A stretch of DNA of 64,000 bases from Escherichia coli (GCF_022846255.1 NZ_AP025682.1); one strand, 5' to 3'; positions 1-12,757 are shown, counted from the first letter of the stretch. Notes: generated by a model from the sequence alone, not told the origin. Numbers and translations are program-made.

Positions 1-1026
1 AGCCGGGTTATTGAGCGGCCCTTTTTTGTCGATGATGCGAATACAGGCTTCGTGGGTGCGAATGGTCACTTTTTCGATATCTGCCGCCGTTTTGCCTGCT
101 GCCTGCATCTGTTCATAGAGCGTCATCGCTGCTTCAACTGCCGTCTGGGAGTGGAACTCCGCCGGAAAGGAGATTTTGAACAGCACATTTTCCATGACGT
201 AAGAACCGTACGGACGCTGGAAGCGGAACGACTCACCTTTAAAGGAGACGTCGTAGAAACCCCACACCGGCGCGGTCAGAGCTGACGGGTAACCCATTTC
301 GCCCGTTTTCGCCATCAGCGCCAGACGTACCGCGCGGGACGTGGCATCGCCCGCCGCCCAGGATTTACGCGTACCGGTGTTCGGTGCATGACGATAAGTG
401 CGCAGCGACTGTCCGTCTACCCATGCCAGCGAAACGGCGTTGAGAATTTCCTCGCGGGTCAGGCCGAGCATTTCGGCGACCACGGCGGTGGAAGCCACTT
501 TCACTAACAGAACGTGGTCGAGACCAACGCGGTTAAAGGAGTTTTCCAGCGCGATGCAGCCCTGAATTTCATGGGCTTTGATCATTGCGGTCAGCACCTG
601 TTTCATGGTCAACGGCGCTTTGCCGCTGGCGATCGCGTTGCGCGAAAGCCAGTCCGCCGTTGCCAGAATGCCGCCGAGGTTGTCGGAAGGATGCCCCCAC
701 TCCGCCGCCAGCCAGGTATCGTTGAAATCGAGCCAACGGATCATCGCGCCAATGTTAAATGCCGCCTGGACGGGGTCGAGCTGAAACTGAGTTCCGGGAA
801 CGCGCACGCCGTTGGGTACGACGGTGCCGGGGACAATTGGCCCCAGCAGTTTTTTACAGGCCGGATATTCGAGAGCTTCCAGACCGCAGCCGAGCGTGTC
901 GAGCAGGCAGTAATGTGCGGTGTCGTAGGCTACTCTGGAGCTGATTTCGTAGTTCATCACGTAATCGACGATATCAACGATTTCACGATCAAATTCCGGG
1001 CGAATGTTGTTGATTTGAGCTGACAT
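1..1026 (-). CDS. prpD: 2-methylcitrate dehydratase, N-terminal part; gene runs off the window start
   Basis: Minus-strand translation from ATG at 1024-1026 reads [30 protein letters not shown]..., recognisable PrpD; position directly downstream of prpC; plus-strand ORFs in the track here are antisense artefacts. Confidence 0.9.
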
Positions 1027-1059: not shown

Positions 1060-2229
1060 TTACTGGCGCTTATCCAGCGCGACAAACTGGCGGTCTTCCG
1101 GTCCAACGTAATTGGCGGAAGGACGGATAATTTTGTTGTCCTGACGTTGTTCGATAATGTGCGCCGCCCAGCCAGTGACGCGGGCGATAACAAACAGTGG
1201 TGTGAACATCTCGGTGGGAACACCCATCATGTTGTAGGAAACAGCGGAGAACCAGTCGAGATTGGGGAACATCTTTTTGCTCTCCCACATCACTGTTTCC
1301 AGGCGATCGGCGATGTTGTACATCTTCAGCGAGCCGCCTTCCTGCGAGAGCTGCTTTGCCACGCGTTTGATCACCTGGTGGCGCGGGTCGGCGATGGTAT
1401 AAACCGGATGCCCAAAACCAATGACCACTTCTTTGTTTTCCACCCGCTTACGGATATCAGCTTCGGCTTCGCCCGGCGTTTCGTAGCGTTGCTGGATCTC
1501 CAGCGACACTTCATTCGCCCCGCCGTGTTTCGGCCCGCGCAGTGCGCCAATCGCGCCAATAATGGCGGAATACATATCAGAGCCAGTGCCCGCAATCACC
1601 CGGCTGGTAAAGGTGGAAGCGTTAAACTCGTGTTCGGCGTACAGCACCAGCGAGATATGCATCGCCTTTTCCCAGCTTTGCGACGGCTTTTCGCCGTGCA
1701 GCAGATGCAGGAAGTGACCGCCGATAGAGTCGTCATCAGTTTCCGGCTGGATGCGTTCGCCGTTGTGGCTGTAGTGATACCAGTAGAGAAGAATCGAACT
1801 AAGTGACGCCAGCAGTTTGTCGGCAATATCCCGCGCACCAGAAACAGTGTGCCCCTCTTTTTCTGGCAGCGTGCAGCCGAGCGCGGAAACGCCGGTGCGC
1901 ATAACATCCATCGGGTGTGACGCCGCCGGTAAGGCTTCCAGCACGGTACGCACGTTAGCCGGTAAACCACGCTGGGCTTTCAGTTTCGTTTTGTAGGCGG
2001 CGAGTTCGTCACGGGTTGGCAGTTTGCCGTGGATCAGCAGGTGCGCCACTTCTTCAAATTCACAATGTTCCGCCAGATCAAGAATATCGTAGCCACGGTA
2101 ATGCAGGTCGTTGCCGCTTTTACCCACGGTGCAGAGCGCCGTATTGCCCGCCGGAACGCCGGAAAGTGCCACCGATTTTTTCGGTTTAATGACATGGGTA
2201 CTGTTTTGCAGGATCGTTGTGTCGCTCAT
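1060..2229 (-). CDS. prpC: 2-methylcitrate synthase
   Basis: 389-aa ORF with citrate-synthase family sequence; prpBCD gene order. Confidence 0.95.
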
Positions 2230-2388: not shown

Positions 2389-3279
2389 TTATTTCACCTG
2401 ACCACGGGCAAACAGGTCGTCGAGCTTCTCTTCGTACTGGTAGTAGTTGATGCTTTCGTACAGCTCGTTGCGGGTCTGCATGGTGTCGATGACGCTTTTC
2501 TGTGTGCCTTCCTGACGCAGGATGTTGTAGACATGTTCAGCGGCGCGGTTCATGGCGCGAAACGCTGAAAGCGGGTAGAGCGCCATTGCGACATGGGCGC
2601 TGCGTAATTCGTCGGTGGTAAACAGCGGTGTTGCGCCAAATTCGGTAATGTTGGCGAGGATCGGCACCTGCACCGCATCGGCAAACTGGCGATACATGGT
2701 GAGTTCGGTAATCGCCTCCGGGAACAGCATTTCGGCACCCGCTTCAACATAGGCCTCCGCTCGTTCGATTGCCGCATCCAGCCCCTCTACCGCCAGCGCA
2801 TCGGTGCGCGCCATGATCACAAAATCAGGATCGGTTTTCGCATCCACCGCCGCGCAGATCCGATCCACCATCTCTTCTTTCGAGACGATCGCTTTATTCG
2901 GACGATGACCGCAGCGTTTCGCACCAACCTGATCTTCAATATGCAATCCTGCCGCACCGGCTTTAATCATTGATTTCACCGTACGCGCCACGTTAAAGGC
3001 TGAAGAACCAAAACCGATATCCGCATCCACCAGCAGCGGCAGCGAACAAACGTCGGTAATACGGCGAATGTCAGTCAGCACATCATCAAGAGTAGAAATA
3101 CCGAGATCGGGCAGCCCCAGCGATCCTGCCGCCACGCCACCGCCGGAGAGATAAATCGCCTGATATCCGGCACGCTGCGCCAACAGCGCATGGTTGGCGT
3201 TAATGGTGCCAACAATTTGCAACGGGGTTTCTTTGCTAAGTGCAGCGCGAAACGCTTTACCTGGAGAGTGTAGAGACAT
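2389..3279 (-). CDS. prpB: 2-methylisocitrate lyase
   Basis: 296-aa ORF, PEP-mutase/isocitrate-lyase family sequence; upstream of prpC on the same strand. Confidence 0.95.
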
Positions 3280-3325
3280 AGCCCATCCTTTGTTATCAAC
3301 TTGTTATTTGCGTTGATAAACACAA

Positions 3326-3341
3326 AGCAAGGGGTGTGCCA
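3326..3341 (-). promoter_or_regulatory. sigma54 (-24/-12) promoter for prpBCD
   Basis: Minus strand reads TGGCAC-ACCCC-TTGCT, matching the TGGCAC-N5-TTGCW consensus, about 45 bp upstream of the prpB start; PrpR is a sigma54-dependent activator. Confidence 0.6.
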
Positions 3342-3505
3342 CAATTGACTGAATAAAATTAAATGTTTAATTTCAATGAGTTAAAGATAAATTCATGAAG
3401 TAATCCGCAAATATGCGTTTCAGTTAACGTTTCAGGCAATGTTTCACCGCGTTTCATTGCAACAATTATGAAACAAGGCTAAACCCAATATTCGGTTTCT
3501 TAACT

Positions 3506-5104
3506 TTGCGGTGCGCTATGGCACATCCACCACGGCTGAATGACGACAAACCGGTTATCTGGACGGTATCTGTAACGCGGCTGTTCGAGTTATTTCGCGA
3601 TATCAGCCTCGAGTTTGATCACCTGGCGAATATCACCCCTATCCAGCTTGGCTTTGAAAAAGCGGTGACCTACATCCGCAAGAAACTGGCAAACGAACGC
3701 TGCGACGCCATCATCGCTGCTGGCTCTAACGGCGCATATCTTAAAAGCCGCCTGTCAGTGCCAGTTATTTTGATTAAACCGAGCGGCTACGATGTGTTAC
3801 AGGCACTGGCAAAAGCCGGAAAACTCACCTCTTCTATCGGCGTTGTCACCTATCAGGAAACCATTCCAGCGCTGGTGGCGTTTCAAAAGACCTTTAATTT
3901 GCGCCTCGACCAACGTAGTTACATCACCGAAGAAGACGCCCGCGGGCAAATCAATGAGTTGAAAGCCAACGGCACCGAAGCGGTGGTCGGCGCGGGGCTG
4001 ATTACCGATCTGGCAGAAGAAGCCGGAATGACCGGAATTTTTATCTATTCCGCCGCCACCGTGCGCCAGGCGTTCAGCGATGCGCTGGATATGACGCGCA
4101 TGTCTCTACGGCATAACACTCACGATGCCACCCGCAACGCCCTGCGTACTCGTTACGTGCTGGGCGATATGCTCGGTCAATCACCACAGATGGAACAGGT
4201 GCGGCAGACTATTTTGCTGTATGCCCGCTCCAGTGCGGCGGTGTTGATTGAGGGGGAAACGGGGACGGGCAAAGAGCTGGCGGCCCAGGCGATTCATCGG
4301 GAATATTTTGCCCGCCACGATGCGCGACAGGGCAAAAAGTCACATCCGTTTGTTGCCGTCAACTGCGGGGCGATTGCCGAATCGCTGCTGGAAGCAGAGC
4401 TGTTTGGCTATGAGGAAGGGGCGTTCACCGGCTCGCGACGCGGAGGTCGCGCCGGGCTGTTCGAAATTGCCCACGGCGGTACGCTGTTTCTGGATGAGAT
4501 TGGCGAAATGCCGCTACCTTTGCAGACTCGCCTGTTACGGGTGCTGGAAGAAAAAGAGGTCACCCGCGTCGGCGGGCATCAGCCTGTTCCGGTGGATGTG
4601 CGGGTCATTAGCGCCACTCACTGCAATCTGGAAGAAGATATGCAGCAAGGGCAGTTTCGCCGTGACCTGTTTTATCGGCTGAGTATTTTACGCCTGCAAC
4701 TGCCGCCGCTACGCGAGCGGGTGGCGGATATTCTGCCGCTGGCGGAAAGCTTTTTGAAAGTGTCTCTGGCGGCGCTCTCCGCCCCGTTTTCTGCCGCATT
4801 ACGCCAGGGGTTACAGGCAAGTGAAACTGTGCTGCTGCGCTACGACTGGCCGGGCAATATTCGAGAACTGCGCAATATGATGGAGCGACTGGCGCTGTTT
4901 TTAAGTGTGGAACCGACGCCGGATTTAACGCCGCAATTTTTGCAGCTGCTACTGCCGGAACTGGCACGCAAGTCGGCGAAGACTCCCATTCCAGGCTTGC
5001 TGACAGCACAACAGGCACTGGAGAAATTTAATGGCGATAAGACAGCAGCGGCGAATTATTTAGGTATCAGCCGAACGACGTTCTGGCGGCGGCTGAAAAG
5101 CTGA
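3506..5104 (+). CDS. prpR: sigma54-dependent transcriptional activator of propionate catabolism (true start possibly at 3518, MAHPPRLN...)
   Basis: 532-aa ORF with AAA+ sigma54-interaction motifs ([13 protein letters not shown]) and C-terminal HTH; divergent from prpB. Confidence 0.9.
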
Positions 5105-8320: not shown

Positions 8321-9277
8321 TTAAACCACCCGATCCAGCCCCAACATGCCGCGAGCCTGAATGAAACAGAGCAGCAACGTTCCCCATAAGGCCATCGTCA
8401 GGTAGGGGCTTATACCGAGAATATTGAAGCCGCTTTCAATAATTTGCAGAAGAAACAGCGCCAGCACCATACCAATTATCCGCCCGCTGCCGCCGTCCGG
8501 ATTAACCCCGCCGAGTACTGCCGCGAGGATTGACACCAGCAAGTACGATTCGCCATAAGAGGCCTTAGCCGAGTTGAGTTTCGACATCATCAAAAATGCC
8601 GCTACCGCACAAAGCAAGGCGGAAATGACATACACCCATATCAGCACCCGACGAGTGTTAATACCGGAGTAAAGTGTTGCTCGTTCGTTAGAACCAATCA
8701 GATAAATGGCTTTACCGAGCGGCGTTTTCTCCAGCAATATCCACAGCCCCAGCGCCACTGCGGTAAACAACCACATCGGTAGCGGAATACCGAACCACTG
8801 TGCATGATTCAACCACAGCACCCATGAGGGATAATTGGCAATGGCGCTACCGCCTGTCACCAGAATATTTACCCCTTTGAGCAACGTCATCATCCCAAGC
8901 GTTGCAAGAATTGGCGACACTCGAATACCAGCAATCAATACGCCGTTACATAAACCGATTATCACCGCCGCGCCAGCGCCTGCCAGTAACGTAGCGACAA
9001 CCGTAGCAATACCCGGTGGATACTGAGTCGCCACCCACGCCATCACCAGTGAACAGGCGTTAGCAGTGGCTATAATTGACAAGTTAATGCCACCGCAAAG
9101 CATGGTCACCGCCATAGCCAACGCCAGAATGCCCAGCACGGGCATTTGCGAAGCGACGGACTGGAAATTACTTATCGACCAGAAAATCTCCGGCATAGTA
9201 ATGCTGAAGGCGGCAACAGTTAGCACCAGCAGGCCGATCAAGTAAAACTCAACGTTATTACGCCACGATTTTTTCAT
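8321..9277 (-). CDS. ABC transporter permease (RbsC/LsrD-like); start taken at MKKSW, ORF extends to 9307
   Basis: Highly hydrophobic 318-328 aa ORF; 4-bp overlap with upstream permease. Confidence 0.8.
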   Translation of the reverse strand: MKKSWRNNVEFYLIGLLVLTVAAFSITMPEIFWSISNFQSVASQMPVLGILALAMAVTMLCGGINLSIIATANACSLVMAWVATQYPPGIATVVATLLAGAGAAVIIGLCNGVLIAGIRVSPILATLGMMTLLKGVNILVTGGSAIANYPSWVLWLNHAQWFGIPLPMWLFTAVALGLWILLEKTPLGKAIYLIGSNERATLYSGINTRRVLIWVYVISALLCAVAAFLMMSKLNSAKASYGESYLLVSILAAVLGGVNPDGGSGRIIGMVLALFLLQIIESGFNILGISPYLTMALWGTLLLCFIQARGMLGLDRVV

Positions 9278-10245
9278 AGCAGACTCCGGTTCTGATGCTG
9301 ACTCCACGCCGTGGCGCTAATGCTGGCAACGATGATGATGCCAGTGATCAATGTTTGCCAGTAAGACGAGACTCCCAATAAATTTAGCCCGTTTTGCATC
9401 ACTGCCAACAACACCACGCCGAGCAAAGTACCGGTTAACGTGCCGCGCCCGCCGAGCAAACTAGTGCCGCCAAGCACCACCGCAGCCAGTACTGTCAGCT
9501 CATAACCCAGAAGAGAATCGGGGGCGACAGTCATCACCGTCCACGACTGCACTACACCCGCAGCACCAGACATCAATCCCATATAGCCATAGACGAAAAG
9601 TTGCAGTTTCAGCACACTAAAGCCGATGCGACTGGCTGATTCGCGGTTCCCGCCAAGGGCATAAATTTTGCGCCCTACACTGGTGAAATTCATGATAAAC
9701 GCTGTTAGCAGCACCACCGTAATCATGGCGATCAGCGGTAGACCAAGGCCATAGTCATAGCCATCAGCATCGGTGTACTTGAACAACATAACCCCCTGCT
9801 CAAACCACGGCGGAAAGTCGTACAGCCACACACCTTTACTCAACCATAACAGCAGGCCATAGAAAATATTCAGCGTCGAGATAGTGATGATGATAGAAGG
9901 CACCCGTAGGCGATTAACCAGTAAGGCGTTAATTAAGCCAAGTAAAATGCCGATGCCGCCCGCCAGTGCAAACGCGACAGCAAAGTTACCACCCATTTTT
10001 TGCAGCAACAGCACCATGCCGTATTGCGCAATGATGGTCATTGCTGGAAACGAAATATCAATTCCACCGGAAATCAACACCACAAACAAACCACAGGCGA
10101 GAATAGTCAACATGGCATAGTTATTGGCGAGATCGTACAAATTACCGAATGTCAGAAACTCGTCGCTGCGCCAGGCAAGGCCGACAAACAGCCCCACAAT
10201 CAGTAATGCCAGCCAGAATTCATGACGTTTTTTCAGTTCAGCCAT
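9274..10245 (-). CDS. ABC transporter permease (RbsC/LsrC-like)
   Basis: 323-aa hydrophobic ORF; overlaps the ATPase gene by 8 bp. Confidence 0.8.
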   Translation of the reverse strand: MAELKKRHEFWLALLIVGLFVGLAWRSDEFLTFGNLYDLANNYAMLTILACGLFVVLISGGIDISFPAMTIIAQYGMVLLLQKMGGNFAVAFALAGGIGILLGLINALLVNRLRVPSIIITISTLNIFYGLLLWLSKGVWLYDFPPWFEQGVMLFKYTDADGYDYGLGLPLIAMITVVLLTAFIMNFTSVGRKIYALGGNRESASRIGFSVLKLQLFVYGYMGLMSGAAGVVQSWTVMTVAPDSLLGYELTVLAAVVLGGTSLLGGRGTLTGTLLGVVLLAVMQNGLNLLGVSSYWQTLITGIIIVASISATAWSQHQNRSLL

Positions 10246-11737
10246 TTACCACCTCCGCAATCCTGGCCTGAGAACTGCTGTCAGGCAGGAAGCTATGGGT
10301 GATCTGACCTTTTTGCATTACCAAAATCCGGTGGCTTTGATACCACGCTTCTTCAATTTCATCGCAGATCATCAATACCGCAATGCCATGAGCCGCCAGA
10401 TCGCTGATAATGCCGTATATTCCTGCTTTGTTGGCGATATCAACACCGACTGTCGGGCTATCGAGAATCAACAGTCGTGGCCCAATCGCCAGCCATTTGG
10501 CGATCGATACTCGCTGCGCGTTACCACCAGAAAGCGTATTCACCGGGAGATGTGGGTCAGAGACTTTGATGGTCAATGCCTTGATTAGCCTGTCCACCAG
10601 GTCACGCACTTTAGCTTCACTCAGAAAGCCGAAGCGATCTTTTACCTTGTGAAAAACAGTGCTAATGATGTTGTCTTCAATAGATTGCGCCATCACCAAA
10701 CCGCGCGACATGCGATCTTCCGAAACATAACCAATACCGTGGCGGATGGCGTCCTGGTTACTATGCAGTGTAACCGGCTGACCGTTGATGAGGATCTCGC
10801 CAGCATCCGGTCGGGTCATACCAAACAGACTCAGACATAATTCCGTGCGCCCCGCACCAAGCAGGCCAATAATCGACACCACTTCGCCCGCTTCCACCCG
10901 CAAGTTAATATTTTGATATTCCCCATGACGACTTAAATTACGCACCTCCAGCACTGGGATGCTGGATTTTCCCTGCCACAACTCTCGTACCTGATATTCA
11001 AACTCCTGGCCGGTCATCAGGAAACCGAGTTGTTTTGTGGTCATCTCTGCAGCCGGAAAGGTCCCGACCAGCTCACCATCTTTCAGCACTGAAATACGGT
11101 CGGAAACTTCCATCACCTCTTCCAGACGATGACTGACGAAGACCACGCAGATCCCGCGTTCCCGCAATTGATGCACCACCTGTAATAACCCTTGCACTTC
11201 CTGATGGGTCAGCGAAGCGGTTGGTTCATCCATCACAATCAACCGTGCGTCCTGCGCCAGTGCACGGCAAATTGCCACCAGCTGACAGCGGGCAATTGAA
11301 AGCTCAGAAACGAGCGTATCCAGTGGCAATGTGACGTTAACACTGGTCATTGCCGCCTGCGCCACCTCACGCAGACGACGTCGGTTAACAAACAGACCGT
11401 GGTGATAGTGATTCACGGCGATATTCTCCCAGACACTCAGGTTAGGAAATAAAGAGAGGTCCTGATAAATCACCTGAATCCCCTGCGCCACCGAAGCGGC
11501 GGGTGTCAGCTTTGACCAGTTTTTCCCACCAAGCGTAATTTCCGCTCCCTCATCCGGGCGATAAACACCGGACATAATTTTAATCAACGTCGATTTACCA
11601 CAGCCGTTTTGCCCGGCAAGGCAGTGCACTTCACCCGACATAAAGTCGAGAGAAACATCGCGCAGCGCTCGCGTGGCATGAAACGTTTTGTTGATATGAC
11701 GAAGGGAAAGGAAGGTTTCCATAACATCCCCTGGCAA
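10238..11737 (-). CDS. sugar ABC transporter ATP-binding protein with duplicated ABC domains (RbsA/LsrA-like)
   Basis: Two Walker A motifs (GQNGCGKST, GLLGAGRTE) and signature-like LSGGNAQR in one 499-aa ORF. Confidence 0.9.
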   Translation of the reverse strand: MPGDVMETFLSLRHINKTFHATRALRDVSLDFMSGEVHCLAGQNGCGKSTLIKIMSGVYRPDEGAEITLGGKNWSKLTPAASVAQGIQVIYQDLSLFPNLSVWENIAVNHYHHGLFVNRRRLREVAQAAMTSVNVTLPLDTLVSELSIARCQLVAICRALAQDARLIVMDEPTASLTHQEVQGLLQVVHQLRERGICVVFVSHRLEEVMEVSDRISVLKDGELVGTFPAAEMTTKQLGFLMTGQEFEYQVRELWQGKSSIPVLEVRNLSRHGEYQNINLRVEAGEVVSIIGLLGAGRTELCLSLFGMTRPDAGEILINGQPVTLHSNQDAIRHGIGYVSEDRMSRGLVMAQSIEDNIISTVFHKVKDRFGFLSEAKVRDLVDRLIKALTIKVSDPHLPVNTLSGGNAQRVSIAKWLAIGPRLLILDSPTVGVDIANKAGIYGIISDLAAHGIAVLMICDEIEEAWYQSHRILVMQKGQITHSFLPDSSSQARIAEVVNG

Positions 11738-11770
11738 TAAGAATCGGGGCTTTCGCCCCGAAGAAATGGA

Positions 11771-12757
11771 TTAATAAAGTGAGTCGATATTGTCTTTGTT
11801 GACCAGTAATACCTTATGGAAACGGATAATTCGCTTATCCATATCTACGTCGGCCTTCCCCAGATTCTGCATTTCTAATCCAGGTTTGATCTCTTCACCC
11901 TTCAGCAACGTGCTGGCGACGGCTGCGAGTGCGTAACCTGCAGAGGCCGGATCGTAAGTAATCCCTTCGGTGATATCACCACTTTTAATCAGTGATGCCG
12001 CCTGTGAAGGAATCATCATGCCATAGACTGCGACTTTATTTTTCGCCCGTTTCTCTTTCACTGCACGTCCCGCGCCAATCGGACCGTTTGAACCAAAGGA
12101 GACAACCGCTTTCAAGTCAGGATAGGTTTTCATCAGGTCCAGTGTGGTACGACGTGAGTCATCCACACTCTCGGCAACCGGCATGCGGCGGGTAACTTCA
12201 TGCATATCCGGGTAATGCTCTTTCTGGTATTTCACCAGCAAGTCAGCCCATAAGTTATGCTGCGGCACGGTCAAACTACCCACGTAAATCACATAGCCGC
12301 CCTTGCCACCCATGCGTTTCGCCATATGTTCAACATATTCAGCGGCAAATTTTTCGTTATCAATGATTTCGATATCCCAGTTAGCACTTAGCTGACCGGG
12401 GGATTCGTTGGTCAGAACCACAATTCCGGCATCTCGCGCTTTTTTGAATACCGGTTCCAGCACGTTGGCATCGTTTGGCACAATTGTAATTGCATTAACC
12501 TTACGGGCGATTAAATCCTCAATAATTTTAACTTGTTGCGGAGCATCAGTACTTGAAGGCCCCACCTGTGACGCATTAACACCAAAGGCTTTACCCGCCT
12601 CAACCACACCTTCGCCCATGCGATTAAACCACGGCATACCATCGACTTTAGAGATATTCACCACGACTTTTTCCGCTGCCTGGAGCGGCGCAGAAATTAG
12701 CGCAGCGCCTAATAACAGCGAAGACACCATATTGATAACAAAACGTTTATTCATCAT
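11771..12757 (-). CDS. periplasmic substrate-binding protein, type I sugar-binding fold (LsrB/RbsB-like)
   Basis: 328-aa ORF with signal peptide and PBP-type motifs; first gene of the ABC operon. Confidence 0.8.
   Translation of the reverse strand: MMNKRFVINMVSSLLLGAALISAPLQAAEKVVVNISKVDGMPWFNRMGEGVVEAGKAFGVNASQVGPSSTDAPQQVKIIEDLIARKVNAITIVPNDANVLEPVFKKARDAGIVVLTNESPGQLSANWDIEIIDNEKFAAEYVEHMAKRMGGKGGYVIYVGSLTVPQHNLWADLLVKYQKEHYPDMHEVTRRMPVAESVDDSRRTTLDLMKTYPDLKAVVSFGSNGPIGAGRAVKEKRAKNKVAVYGMMIPSQAASLIKSGDITEGITYDPASAGYALAAVASTLLKGEEIKPGLEMQNLGKADVDMDKRIIRFHKVLLVNKDNIDSLY

Follow-up and report, generated by a model that had tools for sequence, protein, structure and literature searches.

The prpR-prpB gap and its surroundings

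The stretch of Escherichia coli DNA examined here (NZ_AP025682.1; 64 kb, hereafter the window) opens inside the prp operon. In its left part, the first 1026 nt of prpD are followed by prpC and prpB, from which prpR diverges (Table 1), and from prpR the gene order runs on through yah, bet, ykg and rcl genes to fdeC. PrpR, PrpB and PrpC all score above the cut-offs of their NCBIfam equivalog models, with 1007, 557 and 717 bits, respectively. The initial annotation took PrpR to be a sigma-54 enhancer-binding protein, and its domain content bears this out. It consists of a PrpR_N sensor, an AAA+ sigma-54 interaction domain (PF00158, 1.1e-65), an AAA lid and HTH_8, and the GAFTGS loop that contacts sigma-54 is found at residue 301. 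This domain content, like the sequence elements, their positions and their conservation described below, is a direct observation. 2-Methylcitrate, the product of PrpC, is given the role of PrpR co-activator in the literature.

The region between prpR and prpB had been described as a divergent control region at 3280-3505. The divergent arrangement stands, while the extent had to be revised. Because the start of prpR is the ATG at 3518 (giving the 528 aa annotated in E. coli) rather than the TTG at 3506, the gap covers 3280-3517, or 238 bp. In the same way, the promoter said to drive prpBCD indeed has prpB, prpC and prpD downstream of it, but the operon is prpBCDE. Of 5,426 complete E. coli genomes, 5,218 contain the gap; nine of the matches are to records that carry the label of a plasmid and not of a chromosome. 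One match, in E. coli SCPM-O-B-9504, ends at the window equivalent of 3322 (3321/3322), with an IS1A transposase gene about 60 bp beyond, in the place of prpB. As prpR is annotated as a truncated pseudogene in that strain, the prp system has apparently been knocked out there by natural events.

Table 1. Features of the prp locus in window coordinates, with the number of variable alignment columns among nine E. coli alleles.
Feature	Position	Strand	Description	Variable columns
prpD, 5' part	1-1026	-	2-methylcitrate dehydratase; continues past the left edge of the window	
prpC	1060-2229	-	2-methylcitrate synthase	
prpB	2389-3279	-	2-methylisocitrate lyase; first gene of the operon	
prpB leader	3280-3314	-	36 nt counting +1; AGGA Shine-Dalgarno sequence at 3289-3286, 6 nt before the ATG	1/35
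Direct repeat TGTTA-N6-TGTTA, candidate ArcA-P operator	3291-3306	+	TGTTATCAACTTGTTA; 11 bp centre to centre	0/16
Predicted transcription start (+1)	3315	-	12 nt past the C of GC; uncertainty about 2 nt	
Segment -11 to +1				4/11
Sigma-54 core promoter of prpBCDE	3326-3342	-	GTGGCACACCCCTTGCT, which is TGGCACACCCCTTGCT plus the preceding G	GG/GC, 0/4; other core positions, 1/12 (inside N5)
Variable AT-rich spacer, enhancer to core	3342-3414		presumed IHF bending region	14/73
PrpR enhancer (UAS)	3416-3475		five half-sites of the CGTTTCA/TGAAACG type	hexamer positions, 0/30
PrpR half-sites CGTTTCA	3416-3422, 3428-3434, 3450-3456	+		
PrpR half-site TGTTTCA	3440-3446	+		
PrpR half-site TGAAACA	3469-3475	+		
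Palindrome GTTTCAT-N10-ATGAAAC	3451-3474		formed by one pair of half-sites	
prpR	3518-5104	+	sigma-54 enhancer-binding protein, 528 aa	

Taken as a whole, the window is identical to none of the 5,426 complete E. coli genomes. The best agreement is 98.4% over the first 25 kb, and the best whole-window matches mostly come from wildlife (quail, marmot and native Australian rodents), which suggests that the DNA comes from a less-sampled E. coli lineage. Two blocks outside the prp locus vary between strains. About 7 kb from betA to ykgG (31599-37615) carry a tyrosine invertase, a LuxR-type regulator, a gene without a Pfam match and an autotransporter, and correspond to the known ipbA(fimX)-hyxR-hyxA-hyxB island. 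With a coverage of at least 80%, this island occurs in 1,533 of the 5,426 genomes and is missing from the otherwise closest one, strain Q5. Between yahK and yahJ, a block of four genes for an ABC transporter of the sugar/autoinducer-2 type occupies 8321-12757. It is annotated in the same place in strain Q5 and missing in CFSAN061771, where yahL and yahM lie on the other side of yahK, and this part of the yah locus is a variable region.

The sigma-54 promoter of prpBCDE and its enhancer

The sequence that had been proposed as a sigma-54 promoter is present exactly as claimed. The minus strand reads TGGCACACCCCTTGCT from 3341 to 3326, with GG at 3340-3339 and GC at 3328-3327 in the canonical 10-bp offset of the -24 and -12 elements. 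All 11 specified positions of TGGCAC-N5-TTGCW are matched. The core also lies where a promoter of prpB should lie, since sequence, strand and distance all fit, the ATG of prpB being 46 nt downstream of the core end. This is the sole perfect match to the pattern on either strand of the window, a uniqueness that is only weakly beyond chance at that scale, with 0.14 perfect matches expected and at least one found in 13 of 100 shuffled sequences. Within the 238-bp gap and in the orientation of prpB, about 2.6e-4 perfect matches are expected. Allowing one mismatch adds two further sites in the window, TTGCACTCGTATTGCA at 29715-29730 (minus strand) and TTGCACTCTCTTTGCA at 46091-46106 (plus strand). 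In both of them TG replaces the invariant GG, so that binding of sigma-54 there is unlikely.

The start of transcription is predicted at 3315. It was placed by the convention of Bonocora 2015 and reproduces the distance of 36 to prpB given there. A mapped start for prpB was not found in the accessible literature. Scanning 3200-3600 revealed neither a sigma-70-like promoter nor a terminator at threshold, and hence the promoter of prpR itself was not located.

Upstream of the core lies a cluster of sequences that would serve as the PrpR enhancer. Five TGAAAC/GTTTCA hexamers fall within 60 bp (3417-3474), as compared to 52 in the whole window, and their centres are at -104, -116, -128, -138 and -156 relative to the predicted start. 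These hexamers were recovered from the sequence independently and agree with the published PrpR enhancer, CGTTTCATGAAACG, as quoted by Hartman 2016 (PMC4987338) from Palacios & Escalante-Semerena 2004. Neither the window nor any of the Escherichia alleles examined has this palindrome in its contiguous form. It is contiguous in Citrobacter (C. werkmanii, L004, and Citrobacter FP75, L005) and in the Salmonella-like loci (L095/L189). At the homologous position Escherichia has direct half-sites arranged as GTGAAAC-N5-CTGAAACG-N5-CTGAAACG (3416-3446 in the window). The distal palindrome GTTTCAT-N10-ATGAAAC shows no change across Escherichia, Citrobacter and the Salmonella-like loci. PrpR would presumably occupy particular half-sites within this cluster, and the different layouts might be related to the published report that the E. 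coli PprpB cassette is about 3-fold weaker than that of Salmonella.

The stretch between enhancer and core is rich in AT (75-85% over 3340-3399) and is where IHF would be expected to bend the DNA. It holds three overlapping one-mismatch matches to the IHF consensus, at 3357-3369 (plus), 3360-3372 (minus) and 3371-3383 (plus), and no perfect one; an IHF site may lie among these positions. The spacer differs in length between genera and is unalignable among them, and Citrobacter carries a 19-bp insertion in it. An imperfect 19-nt palindrome (3345-3384; 79% complementary, 2-nt centre) overlaps the IHF-like matches in the window and is not kept in Citrobacter or the Salmonella-like loci. As to CRP, the literature places its site over the PrpR operator. 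The best consensus match in the gap has 7 of 10 positions, and because about 220 equally good sites occur in the window, a CRP site is not resolvable above chance.

Do these elements persist where the locus has diverged? The comparison covered 12 loci in which prpB is divergent from prpR: the window, K-12, E. albertii, two of Citrobacter, two Salmonella-like, two of Photorhabdus and three of Burkholderiales. Every one of them has a TGGCA[CT]-N5-TTGC[AT] core on the prpB strand that ends 39-48 nt ahead of the ATG, and every one has between two and six TGAAAC/GTTTCA hexamers at -60 to -220. The GG and GC of the core are invariant in all 12 and in nine E. coli alleles. Across Escherichia, Citrobacter and the Salmonella-like loci, conservation extends to the distal palindrome and the half-sites next to it, to the core, and to a portion of the leader. 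Natural variation in E. coli avoids the promoter elements as well. Among the nine alleles, 1 of 66 columns varies within the elements and 22 of 172 elsewhere (Fisher p = 0.006, to be read purely as a description, since the alleles are related by phylogeny), and the leader is better conserved than the spacer (Table 1).

A scan of a genome collection for PrpR gave 80 loci, 13 of which are true orthologues, the rest being mostly generic AAA+ matches; the 13 include neither E. coli nor Salmonella. Searching metagenomes with the published Salmonella 18-mer alone returned 120 loci, mostly by chance, with four true Salmonella-like prp loci among them, and the Salmonella core combined with the Escherichia leader box gave no match in metagenomes. 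Five of the PrpR orthologues (L007-L010 and L013) are without a divergent prpB. In Herbaspirillum autotrophicum (L013, 2134-2500) the divergent gene looks acnD-like on the basis of its N-terminal sequence alone, and a sigma-54 core, TGGCACGCTGATTGCT, and three hexamers lie ahead of it. In the two Massilia loci (L008, L009) PrpR neighbours a membrane-protein gene with hexamers nearby, and no comparable promoter was seen near the PrpR orthologue in L007 or L010.

The sigma-54 promoter of prpBCDE is already known and has experimental backing. In K-12, GTGGCACACCCCTTGCT is the in vivo sigma-54 ChIP-seq peak OS01, 17-fold above threshold, and its start was predicted to lie 36 bp from prpB; at that time, in 2015, the K-12 prpB promoter was flagged as 'predicted' in EcoCyc (Bonocora 2015, PMC4591121). 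The prpR/prpB gap also contains a gSELEX peak obtained in vitro with RpoN holoenzyme (Shimada 2021, PMC8743547). For Salmonella, a ChIP-chip site, TGGCATAGCCTTTGCTTT, was reported at the homologous position, and prpBCDE is one of four operons that were experimentally shown to depend on sigma-54 (Samuels 2013, PMC3844500). Comparing expression in an rpoN mutant, which had been suggested as a check on the proposed promoter, was thus published already for Salmonella, with prpBCDE expressed 45-fold higher in the wild type when measured with a promiscuous activator (Samuels 2013, PMC3844500). A requirement for prpR, ntrA (rpoN) and ihf in Salmonella is credited by citing papers to Palacios & Escalante-Semerena 2000, and the requirements for PrpR with 2-methylcitrate, sigma-54, IHF and CRP are summarised in reviews and other papers. 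Occupancy by sigma-54, the need for rpoN, PrpR and IHF, the 2-methylcitrate signal and the effect of CRP thus come from the literature on DNA that is identical (K-12) or homologous (Salmonella), and would extend to the window by analogy.

With the enhancer cluster 100-160 bp upstream, the gene of the activator adjoining and no sigma-70-like promoter detected, we consider it almost certain that the site is the sigma-54-dependent promoter of prpBCDE within a standard enhancer-dependent control region. The other possibility to be weighed is that sigma-54 occupies the core without driving prpB, which would instead be transcribed from an unrecognised sigma-70 promoter. Bonocora 2015 (PMC4591121) regarded many of the novel E. 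coli sigma-54 sites as likely non-functional, and the core match alone, at the level of the whole window, has a p of about 0.13. Against a non-driving site speak the 45-fold dependence of Salmonella prpBCDE on rpoN (PMC3844500), the conservation of the position and orientation of the core across two proteobacterial classes, and the adjoining cognate activator gene and enhancer, together with the failure to find a sigma-70-like promoter. It therefore seems very improbable that prpB is transcribed from elsewhere.

For the sigma-54 promoter, the most likely sequence of events is that of the standard enhancer-dependent pathway. The sigma-54 RNA polymerase would sit at the -24/-12 core (3342-3326, minus strand) in a stable closed complex. 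PrpR, made from the divergent gene, would bind the CGTTTCA/TGAAACG half-sites centred 104-156 bp upstream, and IHF would bend the AT-rich spacer so that PrpR can reach the polymerase. When propionate is converted to 2-methylcitrate via PrpE and PrpC, this ligand would activate the AAA+ ATPase of PrpR, whose GAFTGS loop would then remodel sigma-54 and open the promoter. Transcription would start near 3315 and leave a 36-nt leader before prpB, with cAMP-CRP presumably adding catabolite control.

A direct repeat in the prpB leader

The leader between the predicted start and prpB contains the direct repeat TGTTA-N6-TGTTA, the one item at this locus that could add to present knowledge. It is the single match in 64 kb, where 0.07 are expected, and all the DNA compared (1.38 Mb) holds 16 matches, the copies in prp leaders included. 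In the loci of E. albertii and Citrobacter and in the Salmonella-like ones, both TGTTA half-sites are kept around a 6-nt spacer that changes. In the Salmonella-like leader, TAACAATTTACTAACA, the half-sites and their 11-bp spacing are retained, and one arm of an inverted repeat and an IHF consensus that are present in the window are lost. The 11-bp repeat is found in seven of seven leaders from Enterobacteriaceae, a pair spaced by 22 bp in both leaders from Photorhabdus, and neither in the three from Burkholderiales. ArcA is not known outside the gamma-proteobacteria, and the phylogenetic pattern of the repeat fits such a distribution.

Phosphorylated ArcA recognises direct repeats of TGTTA with an 11-bp spacing, and additional repeats can follow at 11 or 22 bp (Park & Kiley 2014, PMC4173790). 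The leader repeat has this form, with two TGTTA-core direct repeats 11 bp apart from centre to centre, and against the ArcA consensus string it matches at 12 of 20 positions. Some published data touch on the same regulator. Park 2013 reported a predicted ArcA box scoring 15 bits or more 'upstream of prpR', without coordinates, and found prpR to be de-repressed 2.9-fold in an arcA mutant; no ArcA ChIP-seq peak was seen at the prp locus. In anaerobic Salmonella, propionate alone induces prpR, and prpB and prpC need nitrate as well (Shelton 2022). Our literature search found no link between ArcA and the prpB promoter, and no paper that places the Park 2013 box over the prpB leader or ties it to the sigma-54 promoter.

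Tentatively, then, the repeat may be a working ArcA-P operator a short way downstream of the sigma-54 start, at which ArcA-P would keep the polymerase at PprpB from opening the promoter or escaping from it. Support for this hypothesis is moderate, with the missing ChIP peak and the closeness of the Shine-Dalgarno sequence counting against it. If true, it would explain why prpB and prpC of Salmonella need nitrate.

The conserved block at 3291-3319 admits other explanations. It might be an IHF site used in activation, given that TATCAACTTGTTA at 3294-3306 (plus strand) is the sole perfect match to the IHF consensus WATCAANNNNTTR in the gap, or it might form an RNA hairpin that affects mRNA stability or translation, as the leader also holds an exact 8-bp inverted repeat, TTATCAAC-N11-GTTGATAA. 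The IHF match, however, lies downstream of the start and not between enhancer and core, and the Salmonella-like loci retain TAACA-N6-TAACA but have neither the IHF consensus nor the left arm of the inverted repeat. A hairpin is unlikely because its left arm straddles the predicted +1 and the leader folds no better than shuffled sequence (z = 0.13). An RNA element in the gap or leader was rejected on these grounds together with the lack of a match to any Rfam family at E up to 1. An IHF site or hairpin in place of an ArcA-type operator is thus improbable.

A stronger contender is that the repeat binds no protein and was kept as a ribosome-loading region or translational enhancer next to the Shine-Dalgarno sequence. 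The repeat ends 1 nt from AGGA, A/U-rich leaders favour translation, the Photorhabdus leaders have AATAACAA directly before the Shine-Dalgarno sequence, and the ArcA ChIP-seq data of Park 2013 are without a peak at the prp locus. On the other hand, half-sites that are invariant around a changing 6-nt spacer are typical of a protein that binds repeats, and the exact motif is rare, occurring once in 64 kb, and absent from Burkholderiales leaders. A purely translational role is quite conceivable, if somewhat short of probable.

The prp promoter among known systems

The main value of the prpBCDE promoter described here lies in its correct annotation. Among sigma-54 promoters that serve functions other than nitrogen metabolism it is a standard example, and it underlies the propionate-inducible pPro expression vectors and propionate biosensors. 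For engineering and for the reading of variants, the comparative map serves as a blueprint of which bases are constrained, how the enhancer layout of Escherichia differs from that of Salmonella and Citrobacter, and where the spacer is free to vary. Should ArcA act at the leader, the redox state of the quinone pool would be tied directly to a sigma-54 promoter, and prpBCDE itself, besides prpR, would be dependent on respiration. This would offer a mechanism for respiration-dependent use of propionate in the inflamed gut.

The closest parallel to the leader repeat is the ArcA-P operator of icdA P1, which consists of TGTTA direct repeats with the same 11-bp spacing, two of them downstream of the start (PMC4173790). 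Two perfect TGTTA cores with that spacing are found in the prp leader at +10 to +25. Unlike icdA P1, where three repeats accompany a sigma-70 promoter and a footprint has been demonstrated, prpB has a sigma-54 promoter, and its candidate operator is read from sequence and lacks a ChIP-seq peak.

The prpBCDE operon of Salmonella enterica LT2 shares with the window a divergent prpR, the distal GTTTCAT-N10-ATGAAAC palindrome, an AT-rich spacer and the TAACA-N6-TAACA repeat in the leader. Its sigma-54 core is TGGCATAGCCTTTGCT rather than GTGGCACACCCCTTGCT and lies 47 nt ahead of the ATG, much as in the window (46 nt). The Salmonella-like and Citrobacter loci have the contiguous CGTTTCATGAAACG where Escherichia has direct half-sites, and the Salmonella spacer exceeds that of the window by about 20 bp and cannot be aligned with it. 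According to the literature, the Salmonella prpR-PprpB system is about 3-fold stronger than that of E. coli when both are used in E. coli hosts.

The K-12 prpB promoter (OS01, and the PprpB/prpR cassette of the pPro vectors) is likewise close. Its 17-nt core and enhancer block are identical to those of the window, and the 238-bp gap and the predicted 36-nt leader have the same lengths. The two gaps differ by nine substitutions (96.2% identity), seven of which fall in the spacer, one at -5 and one between the enhancer and prpR, leaving the elements untouched.

Classical sigma-54 promoters that use an enhancer and IHF, such as nifH with NifA and Pu with XylR, combine a -24/-12 core, activator sites 100-200 bp upstream, a bendable AT-rich stretch and an AAA+ activator with a GAFTGA-type loop. 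The prp spacer differs from theirs in having no clear consensus IHF site. The prp promoter has the core, the upstream activator sites, the AT-rich spacer and the AAA+ activator loop in common with this type, and a further difference lies in its sensor: PrpR_N responds to 2-methylcitrate, whereas the classical systems respond to phosphorylation or aromatics.
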